Below, one piece after another: positions 1 through 15,000 of a stretch of 64,000 nucleotides of DNA (positions within the stretch are counted from its first letter, which is position 1; the number at the start of each line of letters is the position of its first letter). The stretch comes from Escherichia coli O157:H7 (lineage in GTDB: Bacteria; Pseudomonadota; Gammaproteobacteria; Enterobacterales; Enterobacteriaceae): assembly GCF_013167455.1 (NCBI RefSeq), contig NZ_CP038328.1; one strand, 5' to 3'. A program made the position numbers.

Positions 1-3000
1 ATTCACCGGGATCGTTCTACTCCCGCCGAGACGCTCAATTTCCCGCTCCTGCAATACGCGCAGCAATTTAGGCTGAAGTTCTAACGGCAGATCGCCAATT
101 TCATCGAGAAACAACGTACCGCCATCGGCAATTTCAAAACGACCACGATGGGTATTAATCGCACCAGTAAAGGCCCCTTTGTCATGACCGAATAACTCAC
201 TTTCCAGAAGACTGGCGGGGATGGCAGCGCAGTTGATTTTGACCAGCGGCTTGTCGCGTCGCGGGCTAAGTTGATGGATCGCTCTGGCGATCACCTCTTT
301 GCCGGTTCCGGTTTCACCACAAATCAACACCGTACTGTCGCTCTTCGCCACAATATCTACCTGCTGGAGCAGGTCTTCCATTGCCTGGCTTTGATAGATA
401 ATGTCACCGACGCCCAGATTCGAAAGGAGCTGCTCGCTAAGCTGGTGGTTTTCTTGCTGCAAACTTTCCTGCAAATCGGTCATGCTACGCCAGGCATCGG
501 CATTGCCAACGGCAATAGCGATGCGATCGGCTATGTGTTGTAGTAGCTGGCAGTTTTCCTCACTAAAGAGAGTGGTAGAGGTATGCGCCAGCAACAATGC
601 ACCCGGTGTATGGTTGCCAAAGGTAAGCGGTATCAGGAGCGAAGATTCGCAGCCGTTAGATGCAAGTAAGTGTAATAACGGGTCGCGTTGCCAGAGAAAC
701 AGATCGTCTGCACGGTGCGTCAAGGTCGGTTGTCGGGTTTGTAGCGTTTGTGTCAGCAATACACTGTCGCCAGGCATATTGCGTGGCAGACACGCACAAT
801 GTGAGGCAGAAAGATCGCTGCACCACAGGCTGAACTTCTCGTTCTTTCGATGATCGCCCAGTACCATACTGACTGAAGCCAGACCGAAAAAATGATGGAT
901 CTCACGAGCGACGTCAGCGATCAGATCGTCGAGATCAAGATGTGACAGCACTGCATTAGTGATATCCACCAGTACCCGATGATGATCGCGATCTTTCTCC
1001 AGCAAACGCAGCGCCACCTGTTGTTCTTCATCATTGAGCCATGATTGCAGAACCGGGGTGATAATGCGTGCCAGCCAGTTAAACAGTGTGCAATCCTGGG
1101 GAGTAAAACGACTGCCGTGGGTGCGAATAAAGCGTAGCTCCGCCATTCCACTACTGCCGAGAAGGACGGCGTGACGCGAATAATCGACCATCTCGCCCTG
1201 ATACTCTGTTGTTGCCGTCACATCGCTGCCATCATCATGGTAGCGGTAATAGAAGTTGCTTTTGAGAACATGCAGTTCAATAAGTTGTACCGGGCTGAAC
1301 GGCGGCGGCAGCGGGATGAAGGCGCGTAATAAAGACGCCTTGCCGTGTTTCTGCGCTAACCGCTCTGCGAGCATTCCGTTTACCGCTTCAATTGTTATTC
1401 CTTGCGGCGGGGCAAACATCGCCTCGTCTGACATAGCCATCAACAGTCCTTATTAATGAGAAATCCTTCTCACGCAATTTTTCTGGCCATCAGATAGATA
1501 GCCGGTTCCAGCACAATTTCATCCAACAGATGAATGAATTGAATGCTACGCGCTTGCCACACAGACGTCGCGTCATCTGCCAGTGGCGCGAATGCCCGGG
1601 TCAACAGGGCGGTGTGGCTGGCGTCAATAACAATCTCACCAAAAGTCATCACCCCCAGCATCTTACGTCGGGCTTGCTCCTCTTCGACCAGTGCAAGCCA
1701 ATCTTCGTATTCCGTCAGTGGGCAGCGGAAGGTGACATTCAGACAATCAATCACGCCAACGTGATGACCGATAGCCAGCGAGTAATACATTACCTGGGAG
1801 CTGTGTTCCGGCATCTCGTCGCTACTGGCGACAAACTTTTTTCGCAGCGTCCAGAAAACAATTTCCCCGCACTCTTCAGTCATGTAACCCCCGGAGTACG
1901 CGAAAGAGTTGCTGAACGATACTATTGAGACGTGGATCGTCGGCATCGCGCAACCAGGTGTTAACCCGATTTCCTGTAGGATCGTTGCTTAAATGGCGCA
2001 GGAGCCGATCGCAAATTTCTTGCCCCTGACGATAGCCCGCCAGCCGCCGCGCTTCTCGCTCAATGGCGATACGCTGTGATGGCGGGATCTGCGGCCACAA
2101 CGGTTGCATAGTCACCCCGGTGGGATCGCGATAATCCACCGCGTGAATCTTCTGTTGCAGCAAACCGAGCGCCACGGCGAAACCGTGAATGGTGGCGGCC
2201 GGTGTTGGCGGGCAGCCGGGGATCCAAACATCAATGGGGACAATGGTGTCGCTGCCGCCCCAGACGCTGTAGAGATCGTGGAAAATACCGCCGCCGACAC
2301 CGCACGCGCCGTAGGAAACACAGATTTTATGATCGGGGGCAGACTCATACGCCCGAAGTGCAGGCATACGCATCGCCCGGGTGACTGCGCCAGTAAATAA
2401 CAAAATATCGGCGTGACGCGGTGATGAAACAACCTTAATGCCAAAACGTTCTGCGTCGAATACGGGTGTGATGGCGGCAAAAATTTCGATTTCACAGGCG
2501 TTGCAGCCGCCGCAATCGACGCGATAAACGTAGGCTGAGCGACGGATATCCTGTAGCAAATGCCGCTTCATCTTTTGCGTTTGCTCGTCCAGCGTGATGG
2601 GCTGGCTGACATGTTGTGTAAGCACTGGACTCATAGCTGCTCCTTAGCCACCAGCGGTACATCTGTATCGTCGTTGATCAGCGTCGCGCGTTGTTTGCAC
2701 TCCGGGCAGACGCTCGCTTGCGCCCGCAACATTTCGCGGTTTTGTGGCGCATTTTGTTGCTGTGCCAACAATTCAGCAGCCAGTGCGACGGTTTTTTGCG
2801 GGGCAAACGGGCGTTCGCAACGGCTGCAACGTTGTAGATGGAACGTCGCGCGGGTATAGAGATCGGCTTTATTGGTGACGGTCAGTTCAAAGTTATTGGT
2901 AAGCTGGATGGCTCTGGTCGGGCACACTTCTTCACAACGTCCGCAGTAAATACAACGCCCCAGATAGAGCTGCCAGGTGCGCGAATTTTGCTGGTCGTCG

Positions 3001-12000: not shown

Positions 12001-15000
12001 AGACCTGCACGCAAGGGGCTTCCTCACAGTGATGACACACGACAGGGGCAGTGAGTGTTGACGTCTTCGCCAGGGCCAGGCGCGGGTGTTGCTGTAAACC
12101 TTGCGTTTTATGCACGTCCGAACAGGCAGCGAGACAGGTATTACATCCTGTACACCACAGTGGTTCGGCCACCACAAAGCGGTTCATGTCGGCTCCTTGA
12201 AAATGATATGAAACATTGCATTTCATAATGCATAAAGGATGTCAGTATGATTAATTTAATATATTCAATAAGTTATGAATTAACTGAATTCTGAACGGTA
12301 CAAAAATGATGGTCATTAACGTTCAGCAAAAAATGGATTCGACACCCGTGTCGCAGGGGAAAGTGAGAATGTGATCTTGATCACGATAAGTGAGGTGTGC
12401 TGACCGCAAGCGCAGCCAGCACGGAATGGAGCAAAGTAATCAGGCGTGTTCTTTCAGCCAGTTCAGCACAACGTCGTGGTGATTGCTGGTTTTGAAATCG
12501 TCAAAGACATGTTCGATTTTGCCATCAGCGTCAATCAGGAAGCTGATGCGATGAATACCATCGTAGGTTTTGCCCATGAAGGACTTTTCCCCCCAGACGC
12601 CGAATTGCTCGCACACCTGGTGGTCCTCATCAGACAGGAGCGTAAAGTTAAGCAGCTCTTTTTCCGCAAAACGGGAGAGTTTTTCGGGTTTATCGGTGCT
12701 GATACCCAGCACATCAACGCCCGCTTTTTTCAACTCATCCATGTTATCGCGTAAGCCGCAGGCCTGTACGGTACAGCCGGGGGTCATGGCTTTCGGGTAG
12801 AAATAAACCAGAACACGCTGTCCCTGGAAGTCGGTCAAATTAACTTGTTCTCCGTCTTGATCCGGCAAGCTAAATTTCGGTGCGATATCACCGGCTTTCA
12901 GTGGATTCATTACTTAACTCCATCCTGTTCATCATGTTGGGAATAATTGACGACGTTAATACTGCCTTGTGCATTGAGTTCTGTACATAGGGCTTTGAAC
13001 GCTTGCTCAATATTTGCTGCGTCCGCAGATGCGGGGCTGTGGGCAGTAATCTGAATATGCAACTGCGCAGCCCGCTCATTTTCAGCAGGTTGTGTGCGCG
13101 ACACCAGCTCCGCAATGTTCATATGATGCGCGTCGAAAAGTGCTGTGAAGCGTTCAATTAAATGCGGGGAGTCTGCCACATCGACCTGAACCCAGACAGA
13201 TGCTGGCATTGGCGGACGCGGACGCGCCGTCGTGCGCTTCATCACGATTAAAAGATCCAGTTCGGCACCTTTCAACGGTAACGTTGATTCAATCAGAGTA
13301 ATGGCATTCCATGAACCGGAAAGCAGCATGATAAACGTGAACTCTTCTCCCAGCATCGCCAGGCGACTGTCTTCAATATTACAGCCGCAACTACTGACAT
13401 GACGGGTGATGGTGTTCACAATTCCAGGGCGATCGGCACCCAACGCAGTGATCACCAGATAATGTTGCGATGACAGTGTCAAACTGGTTATTCCTTTAAG
13501 GGGTGAGTTGTTCTTAAGGAAAGCATAAAAAAAACATGCATACAACAATCAGAACGGTTCTGTCTGCTTGCTTTTAATGCCATACCAAACGTACCATTGA
13601 GACACTTGTTTGCACAGAGGATGGCCCATGTTCACGGGAAGTATTGTCGCGATTGTTACTCCGATGGATGAAAAAGGTAATGTCTGTCGGGCTAGCTTGA
13701 AAAAACTGATTGATTATCATGTCGCCAGCGGTACTTCGGCGATCGTTTCTGTTGGCACCACTGGCGAGTCCGCTACCTTAAATCATGACGAACATGCTGA
13801 TGTGGTGATGATGACGCTGGAGCTGGCTGACGGGCGCATTCCGGTGATTGCCGGGACCGGTGCTAACGCTACTGCGGAAGCCATTAGCCTGACGCAGCGC
13901 TTCAATGACAGTGGTATCGTCGGCTGCCTGACGGTAACCCCTTACTACAATCGTCCGTCGCAAGAAGGTTTGTATCAGCATTTCAAAGCCATCGCTGAGC
14001 ATACTGACCTGCCGCAAATTCTGTATAATGTGCCGTCCCGTACTGGCTGCGATCTGCTCCCGGAAACGGTGGGCCGTCTGGCGAAAGTAAAAAATATTAT
14101 CGGAATCAAAGAGGCAACAGGGAACTTAACGCGTGTAAACCAGATCAAAGAGCTGGTTTCAGATGATTTTGTTCTGCTGAGCGGCGATGATGCGAGCGCG
14201 CTGGACTTCATGCAATTAGGCGGTCATGGGGTTATTTCCGTTACGGCTAACGTCGCAGCGCGTGATATGGCCCAGATGTGCAAACTGGCAGCAGAAGGGC
14301 ATTTTGCCGAGGCACGCGTTATTAATCAGCGTCTGATGCCATTACACAACAAACTATTTGTCGAACCCAATCCAATCCCGGTGAAATGGGCATGTAAGGA
14401 ACTGGGTCTTGTGGCGACCGATACGCTGCGCCTGCCAATGACACCAATCACCGACAGTGGTCGTGAGACGGTCAGAGCGGCGCTTAAGCATGCCGGTTTG
14501 CTGTAAAGTTTAGGGAGATTTGATGGCTTACTCTGTTCATAAGTCGCGCCTGGCAACGGTTGCGGGTGTTTCGCTTGTTTTATTACTCGCTGCCTGTAGT
14601 TCTGACTCACGCTATAAGCGTCAGGTCAGTGGTGATGAAGCCTACCTGGAAGCGGCACCGCTTGCGGAGCTTCATGCCCCGGCTGGAATGATTTTGCCGG
14701 TGACCTCCGGTGATTATGCAATCCCGGTGACCAACGGTAGTGGTGCTGTCGGTAAGGCGCTGGACATTCGTCCACCAGCCCAGCCGCTGGCACTGGTTTC
14801 TGGCGCGCGTACCCAGTTCACGGGCGATACCGCTTCATTGCTGGTGGAAAATGGTCGTGGCAATACTCTGTGGCCGCAGGTGGTTAGCGTGCTGCAGGCG
14901 AAAAACTACACCATCACCCAACGTGATGATGCTGGTCAGACACTGACCACCGATTGGGTACAATGGAACCGTCTGGACGAAGACGAGCAGTATCGTGGTC

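Follow-up and report, generated by a model that had tools for sequence, protein, structure and literature searches.

The first 12.2 kb of a 64,000-nucleotide stretch of the Escherichia coli O157:H7 chromosome (RefSeq assembly GCF_013167455.1, contig NZ_CP038328.1; the whole stretch is referred to here as the window) contain the hydrogenase-4 (Hyd-4) locus, hyf, and our analysis makes it likely that this strain carries a structurally competent operon for Hyd-4 and formate hydrogenlyase-2 (FHL-2) that is poorly transcribed from its own sigma-54 promoter. The coding sequence is complete and includes a 48-bp segment of hyfG, the gene for the catalytic subunit, that is deleted in K-12, while the promoter ahead of hyfA departs from the consensus at its -24 element. 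Among bacterial relatives of the complex I ancestor that still make H2, Hyd-4/FHL-2 is, to our knowledge, the closest. The debate on energy conservation by Hyd-4 goes back to 1997 and owes its length mainly to the fact that no one has observed the E. coli enzyme in action; nearly all studies of E. coli Hyd-4 have been made in K-12. The locus is an already known system, and we consider the comparison of its alleles, rather than the system itself, to be the useful part of what follows.

The coding sequence of hyf in O157:H7

Three concordant lines of evidence place hyfABCDEFGHIJ and the start of hyfR on the minus strand at window 1-12187, between bcp and the window start: a listing of open reading frames (ORFs), a megablast comparison with 5,426 complete E. 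coli genomes, and the annotation in RefSeq of a record with 100% identity. A preliminary description of this DNA had given these same coordinates and was silent on the strand. By megablast, window positions 1-14000 are 100% identical to several O157:H7 chromosomes, and positions 1-12439 match those of O157:H7 Sakai base for base. The features of the locus, with the gene that adjoins it, are as follows.

1-1440, minus strand: hyfR, codons 1-480 of 670, sigma-54 enhancer-binding activator (RefSeq annotation, stop-free translation)
1470-1883, minus strand: hyfJ, HycH-family maturation chaperone, 137 amino acids (PF07450, E=1e-55)
1876-2634, minus strand: hyfI, [NiFe]-hydrogenase small subunit, NuoB-like, 252 amino acids (PF01058)
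2631-3176, minus strand: hyfH, ferredoxin-type protein with two [4Fe-4S] clusters, HycF/NuoI-like, 181 amino acids (Pfam and HycF alignment)
3186-4901, minus strand: hyfG, catalytic large subunit, NuoC-NuoD-like fusion, 571 amino acids, GTG start (PF00329, PF00346, PF00374)
4891-6471, minus strand: hyfF, antiporter-like membrane subunit, NuoL/M/N- and MbhH-like, 526 amino acids (PF00361, PF00662)
6476-7126, minus strand: hyfE, small membrane subunit with a NuoK-like C-terminal half, 216 amino acids (PF00420, residues 127-216)
7138-8577, minus strand: hyfD, antiporter-like membrane subunit, 479 amino acids, intact (PF00361)
8594-9541, minus strand: hyfC, NuoH/HycD-like membrane subunit, 315 amino acids (PF00146, E=4e-58)
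9552-11570, minus strand: hyfB, antiporter-like membrane subunit, HycC-like, 672 amino acids, intact (PF00361)
11570-12187, minus strand: hyfA, ferredoxin-type protein with four [4Fe-4S] clusters, HycB-like, 205 amino acids (Pfam and HycB alignment)
12440-12910: bcp

Translation of the ten ORFs from hyfA to hyfJ gave full-length products with no internal stop or frameshift, as the preliminary description had claimed, and its gene assignments, including the start of hyfR, were borne out by Pfam and by alignment with the K-12 and formate hydrogenlyase-1 (FHL-1) proteins. We regard the identity and coding integrity of the locus as close to certain. Two details of that description need correction. 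It had counted hyfJ among the structural genes, whereas the product is a maturation protein of the HycH type (PF07450), and it had credited Hyd-4 with one antiporter-like subunit more than hydrogenase-3 (Hyd-3), whereas there are two more (HyfB, HyfD and HyfF against HycC alone). The part of hyfR that lies in the window encodes the N-terminal and GAF domains and the larger part of the AAA+ domain, with the remainder beyond the window start; the identical, full-length Sakai protein has GAF at residues 169-311, Sigma54_activat at 347-513 and an AAA-lid domain.

Alignment of the products with their references, a check that the preliminary description had proposed, found all ten at full length against K-12, with a gap of 16 amino acids in HyfG, and all Ni and Fe-S ligands present in HyfG, HyfA, HyfH and HyfI; neither truncation nor ligand loss was found in the coding sequence. 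HyfG aligns end to end with HycE (7z0s_E, E=8e-293) and has its Ni ligands at C243, C246, C533 and C536, within RVCGICGFAH (241-250) and DPCYSCTDR (531-539). Its canopy and proton-pathway residues H286, R397, E439, R480 and D531 are all present; in HycE, the residues named as the proton pathway are R478, D529, H284, E437 and R395 (Steinhilper et al., PMC9474812). A C-terminal assembly peptide of 32 amino acids follows R539, colinear with the HycE peptide after R537, and a cleavage site for a HycI-type endopeptidase is predicted directly after R539. HyfI matches HycG (7z0s_G, E=3e-98) with CGGC, GACG and GCPP conserved and the four cysteines of its [4Fe-4S] cluster present; HyfH matches HycF (7z0s_F, E=4e-47) with canonical CxxCxxCxxxCP motifs and every cysteine conserved; and HyfA matches HycB (7z0s_B, E=2e-59) with 16 of 16 cysteines present. 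The membrane arm is complete as well (PF00361 in HyfB, HyfD and HyfF, PF00146 in HyfC, PF00420 in HyfE), and it is this set that separates Hyd-4 from Hyd-3. The best match to HyfF in the PDB is MbhH (6cfw_H), HycC being only a distant match, and no PDB chain was matched by sequence to HyfE.

The genes are closely packed. Intergenic distances from hyfA to hyfJ are -1, 10, 16, 11, 4, -11, 9, -4 and -8 nt, a range of -11 to +16 nt that agrees with the tight junctions described before, and 29 nt separate hyfJ from hyfR. A Shine-Dalgarno-like GGAG or AGGA stands ahead of every hyf start codon, and these sequences together with the short gaps would fit translational coupling. An Rfam scan of the whole window matched no RNA family.

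Taken together, the products are predicted to form a complete group-4a [NiFe]-hydrogenase (Hyd-4), the core of FHL-2. By homology with the solved FHL-1, electrons would pass from formate dehydrogenase-H through the four [4Fe-4S] clusters of HyfA, the two of HyfH and the one of HyfI to the [NiFe] site of HyfG, where protons would be reduced to H2, and the five-subunit arm resembling complex I (HyfC, HyfE, HyfB, HyfD and HyfF) may couple H2 formation to ion movement. HyfR would serve as the sigma-54 activator from the formate regulon and HyfJ as a chaperone of the HycH type; maturation would depend on HycI and on the Hyp proteins, whose genes lie outside the locus. If made, the enzyme would be expected to be catalytically competent.

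A segment of HyfG that K-12 lacks

The preliminary description had implicitly taken K-12 as its standard of intactness, and the comparison shows that this standard is itself deficient, the K-12 hyfG having lost 16 codons. HyfG of K-12 MG1655 has 555 amino acids against 571 in the window, and this is the sole indel among the hyf products. The segment concerned is as follows.

3699-3746, minus strand: 48-bp segment encoding ARDYSPVGPLIRGSGF (HyfG 386-401), present here and deleted in K-12

In the DNA alignment with K-12 the segment is bordered by 10-bp direct repeats, GCCCGTGATT, which are the signature of what would be a repeat-mediated deletion. The 16 encoded residues line up with a conserved stretch of HycE, of Pyrococcus MbhL, of Thermus Nqo4 and of E. 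coli NuoCD, and of the 120 HyfG homologues that are nearest among other genera (Kosakonia to Shewanella), 114 keep them. Across 36 orthologues, 10 of the 16 positions are invariant. Among the segment's residues is an arginine, HyfG R397, that is the counterpart of HycE Arg395 and is without an equivalent in K-12 HyfG; HycE Arg395 belongs to a proton pathway that is conserved in hydrogenases and in complex I alike (Steinhilper et al., PMC9474812).

The deletion is widespread. A census of the 5,426 complete E. coli genomes, a collection so strongly skewed to clinical lineages that this and later counts are database fractions rather than natural frequencies, found the 48-bp segment in 2,179, the K-12 junction in 2,115 and no hyf in 1,132. 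Carriers of the K-12 junction include B, C, Crooks (ATCC 8739) and strains of O26, O103, O111 and O121. We considered a sequencing error as the origin of the K-12 deletion and ruled it out, the identical junction being present in 2,115 independent complete genomes. By these comparisons the window hyfG is the ancestral undeleted form, and the K-12 hyfG is a damaged allele.

Other variants of hyfG were seen in passing. K-12 HyfG (L002:9488-11155) has Ile at position 321 (T321I), where the window and 35 orthologues of other genera have Thr. The closest HyfG database entries include HyfG-HyfH read-through fusions of 740 amino acids (P0004, P0005), and truncated entries that lack the GPxxRxSG motif were also present (P0018, from Shigella sonnei, 491 amino acids; P0100, 465 amino acids, 105 members); these fusions and truncations are further damaged alleles in public data. 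AlphaFold2 models of the two HyfG alleles had mean predicted local distance difference test (pLDDT) scores of 60.7 and 58.4, with the segment region below 50, and were too poor to be used.

The sigma-54 promoter of hyfA in O157:H7

The claim of an intact locus, which stood for the coding sequence, does not hold for the regulatory region, where the -24 GG of the sigma-54 promoter is broken. Two features of the spacer between bcp and hyfA are of interest.

12229-12245, minus strand: sigma-54 -24/-12 promoter element of hyfA, CTGACATCCTTTATGCA, aligning with the K-12 site ATGGCATCCTTTATGCA
12340-12353, minus strand: inverted repeat CGACACGGGTGTCG followed by a T-rich run, invariant in the eight strains compared

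The strict sigma-54 pattern TGG-N8-TGC (GG-N10-GC spacing) had no match in the bcp-hyfA spacer, and it was through this failure that the GA variant was discovered. At -24 the window has TGACA in place of TGGCA, with A standing for the second G of the GG at window 12242, and the -12 TGCA and the remaining motif are unchanged; in an alignment with seven other strains, all the others have TGGCATCCTTTATGCA and the window has TGACATCCTTTATGCA. From the general properties of sigma-54 promoters, a change from GG to GA at -24 is expected to be severe. Transcription is predicted to start about 31 nt upstream of the hyfA ATG. The K-12 site, ATGGCATCCTTTATGCA, is the sigma-54 site OS23 mapped by chromatin immunoprecipitation sequencing (ChIP-seq) and entered in EcoCyc as confirmed by experiment (PMC4591121 Table 1), and by genomic systematic evolution of ligands by exponential enrichment (gSELEX) the hyfA spacer is among the strongest peaks of the RpoN holoenzyme in vitro (92%), and the highest with NtrC added (PMC8743547). 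Among 50 intergenic K-12 ChIP sites, 49 have G at the position mutated here, one has T and none has A (PMC4591121 table). Scored with the position-specific scoring matrix (PSSM) derived from the 50 K-12 sites, the element falls from 16.3 to 8.7 bits, a drop of 7.6 that takes it to the bottom of the bound range. A sigma-70 promoter scan of the spacer found none on the coding strand and one chance-level match on the other strand. On this evidence we lean toward reduced transcription from the GA allele, in which case sigma-54-dependent transcription would be strongly reduced and the operon largely silent in this O157:H7 strain.

The exact 60-mer around the GA variant was found in 138 genomes, Sakai included. 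The O157-type strain ERL04-3476 has otherwise the same stretch upstream of hyfA, yet retains GG, and the -24 change is thus recent and polymorphic within O157:H7. The same G-to-A change is present in an unrelated chicken isolate, 2c3, and the variant must therefore have arisen more than once. A recent and recurrent variant at this position is as expected if loss of hyf expression costs little.

The inverted repeat CGACACGGGTGTCG, which was picked up as terminator-like in a scan of the spacer, is probably the bcp terminator; alternatively, it is a candidate activator-binding site.

Decay of hyf across E. coli

We aligned to the window 18 further hyf loci, taken at even steps down the similarity ranking, for a total of 19 loci. 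Single-base frameshifts in lone assemblies may be sequencing errors, and for this reason frameshifts were counted only as shared haplotypes. Artificial 60-mers made by removing one window base had no match among the sampled loci, owing to single-nucleotide polymorphisms linked to the lesions in their haplotypes, and real lesion haplotypes were used instead. Seven lesions recur in varying combinations among the sampled loci, and in the alignment the window carries none of them. Their positions, in window coordinates, are as follows.

2287, minus strand: hyfI:348, 1-nt deletion, not in a homopolymer; exact haplotype in at least 683 genomes
3041-3046, minus strand: hyfH, 6-bp deletion changing the first ferredoxin motif from CxxCxxCxxxCP to CxxCxxCxCP
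3699-3746, minus strand: hyfG, 48-bp deletion, 2,115 genomes
7613-7820, minus strand: hyfD, 208-bp deletion, the segment missing in 926 of 4,294 hyf-bearing genomes
8144, minus strand: hyfD:434, 1-nt deletion (locus alignment)
8489 (codon 30), minus strand: hyfD:89, 1-nt deletion in a G6 run, GGGGGG to GGGGG, in five sampled strains
10980, minus strand: hyfB:591, 1-nt deletion outside any homopolymer run; exact haplotype in at least 1,257 genomes

All hyf ORFs are open in six of the 19 loci, namely the window, AH62, Ecol_881, O166:H15, WP7-S18 and 266917_2; K-12 and FDAARGOS_1248 have the 48-bp hyfG deletion as their sole lesion. The way in which the lesions combine implies old pseudogene alleles that would have been shuffled by recombination, or else recurrent events at repeats, and the hyf operon is decaying across E. 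coli by several independent routes.

Some of these alleles call for comment. Unlike the hyfB and hyfI frameshifts, hyfD:89, lying in a G6 run, could be a slippage hot spot or in part a sequencing artefact. The 6-bp hyfH deletion is carried by S56, A2, BLR(DE3) and 2015C-3163 (loci L006, L007, L013 and L015); RefSeq calls hyfH normal in three of the four, and flags that of 2015C-3163 as frameshifted through an extra 1-nt deletion. In O145 RM10425-C1 (L019:13496-15794), a close relative of O157, focB is split by ISEc20 (IS110 family) and hyfF has a +1 frameshift, which is another independent route of decay. In LF82 (L025:3951-4050), bcp directly adjoins yfgO, and in such hyf-less (B2-type) genomes about 100 bp lie between the two; similarity of LF82 to the window ends at window 12391, within the bcp-hyfA spacer.

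Substitution patterns were examined at two depths. The pairwise ratio of nonsynonymous to synonymous polymorphism (pN/pS) of the hyf genes was 0.12 among intact loci and 0.17 among lesioned ones, values that are too close to decide between the two groups because most of the divergence predates the lesions. Singleton substitutions are the more telling test: the nonsynonymous to synonymous (N/S) counts were 62/56 in lesioned and 55/102 in intact lineages (Fisher p = 0.005; small counts), consistent with relaxed selection on recent substitutions in the lesioned lineages. On the O157 branch the singleton N/S is 12/12. The predicted silencing of hyf in this O157:H7 strain would be an early stage of the decay seen elsewhere as deletions and frameshifts.

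Several observations pull the other way from a decaying and poorly transcribed operon. The clpP site of K-12 (TTGTCA) is bound and likewise lacks the second G. The recent GA change may be all but neutral for no other reason than that the operon sees little use. The low pN/pS speaks for purifying selection during most of the history of hyf, from which it can be argued that the operon is useful in at least some lineages. On one alternative the locus is fully functional and normally expressed, the GA element being tolerated through, for example, strong input from FhlA or HyfR or another promoter, so that O157:H7 would make an active and possibly ion-translocating FHL-2. Such tolerance would agree with ORFs, ligands and ribosome-binding sites that are all intact, with a HyfR that is full length in the identical Sakai sequence, with the unchanged -12 element and remainder of the sigma-54 motif, and with the low long-term pN/pS. 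We nevertheless judge it unlikely: A occurs at the mutated position in none of the 50 mapped intergenic sites and the PSSM score lies at the low end of the range for bound sites, the spacer has no sigma-70-like promoter on its coding strand, the same change in the unrelated 2c3 is as expected where loss of expression is unselected, and nonsynonymous and synonymous changes are equal in number on the O157 branch.

The same 12/12 ratio could be taken to mean that the operon is already dead, one of its subunits having been inactivated by missense changes specific to the lineage. The structural proteins have 13 window-specific amino-acid changes, among them HyfC R251C, HyfB A56E, HyfF A103E and HyfI R205Q, and HycG too has Arg at the position aligned with HyfI 205. 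None of the 13, however, falls on a metal ligand or a named proton-pathway residue, and at the position of another, HyfH A52T, HycF has Ser; we regard inactivation by missense as very unlikely. A competent enzyme behind a weakened sigma-54 promoter remains the reading that we prefer for O157:H7.

The hyfG deletion and the inactivity of K-12 hydrogenase-4

FHL-2 activity has been demonstrated in Pectobacterium and never unambiguously in E. coli (PMC7654741). The 15 K-12 strains engineered by Finney et al. had hyc or T5 promoters before hyfA, fusions of HyfG to the HycE C-terminus and extra protease; with strong promoters and repaired C-termini, they gave no H2, and the failure was ascribed to an "additional, unknown, biosynthetic problem" (PMC7654741). 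Recent reviews regard K-12 FHL-2 as functional or possibly functional (e.g. PMC13277316). We found no mention of the internal hyfG deletion, of hyf decay across the species or of the O157 promoter variant in the searchable literature, outside of which most subscription journals lie.

The deletion, which takes 16 core residues out of the catalytic subunit, is an obvious candidate cause of K-12 Hyd-4 inactivity. We put forward tentatively, as a suggestion with somewhat less than an even chance of being right, that the 48-bp deletion in hyfG may be the unrecognised reason why K-12 Hyd-4 was inactive in every attempt at engineering it. If so, an active E. coli FHL-2 would be obtained for the first time by restoring window 3699-3746 in K-12, for which the window sequence provides the repair template, or by expressing a full-length allele such as that of the window from a promoter that works. 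What had been a puzzle of a silent operon with an unknown assembly problem now yields an explanation that can be tested.

Against the deletion as cause stands the fact that K-12 retains all other hyf ORFs open. In addition, Hyd-4-dependent H2 has been claimed from K-12 hyf mutants (Mirzoyan et al. 2017, as cited in PMC11841067), and such production is hard to square with a dead K-12 HyfG. The corresponding alternative is that the 48-bp difference is neutral, K-12 HyfG working without residues 386-401 and K-12 inactivity having other causes. The deletion is in frame, and the allele persists in about half of the hyf-bearing genomes; the other ORFs are all open in both K-12 and FDAARGOS_1248; and there are the reports of Hyd-4-dependent H2 from K-12 cited in PMC11841067. 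We think neutrality improbable, given that conservation of the segment extends from group-4 hydrogenases to complex I, that its 10 residues invariant in 36 orthologues include the equivalent of HycE Arg395, that the 15 engineered strains gave no H2 (PMC7654741), and that six of the eight sampled hyfG deletion alleles carry further frameshifts.

K-12 sequences are unsafe as a reference for what is intact. Better natural models, with intact ORFs and a consensus promoter, include AH62, Ecol_881, O166:H15 JNE21-003 and 266917_2.

Other features of the window

The first difference between the window and the near-identical record of CDC#03-98 is a single base at window 26312. In that record hemF is flagged as frameshifted; here it is an intact ORF of 299 amino acids (window 52256-53155), and the CDC#03-98 frameshift is probably an assembly error in the record. 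The ethanolamine-utilisation (eut) operon, from eutS to eutR (window 37554-52250), is an uninterrupted block of 17 genes; in K-12 it is interrupted by the CPZ-55 prophage.

Comparison with known systems

Hyd-3, the hydrogenase of FHL-1 (hyc; 7Z0S, 7Z0T), resembles Hyd-4 in four of its subunits: HycE, HycG, HycF and HycB match HyfG, HyfI, HyfH and HyfA along almost their whole length with the cofactor ligands conserved, and the two systems are alike in having a C-terminal assembly peptide and a chaperone of the HycH type. They differ in the membrane, where FHL-1 has HycC and HycD only (PMC13277316) and Hyd-4 adds HyfD, HyfE and HyfF; HycC is the single antiporter-like subunit of Hyd-3, and its chain 7z0s_C is the sole antiporter-type match in FHL-1. 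Unlike hyc, the hyf operon is without a gene for the HycI protease and has its own activator, hyfR, and formate channel, focB.

The FHL-2 of Pectobacterium atrosepticum (hyfABCDEFGHIJK-hyfR) has the same subunits in the same order and is active by experiment (PMC7384014, PMC7654741). Pectobacterium differs in having its own protease, HyfK, within the cluster and no Hyd-3. HyfG of Pectobacterium betavasculorum (P0032) is 80% identical to that of the window and keeps the 16-residue segment.

The nearest comparison is with hyfABCDEFGHIJR-focB of K-12, the Hyd-4 operon of Andrews et al. 1997 (as cited in PMC13277316), which occupies the same site, flanked by bcp and yfgO, and agrees with the window in its order of 12 genes and in their junctions. 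The DNA is 98.6% identical to that of the window, with between 0 and 8 amino-acid substitutions per product. K-12 keeps the consensus -24 GG and has a hyfG that lacks 48 bp and carries T321I, whereas the window has a full hyfG and has lost the -24 GG.

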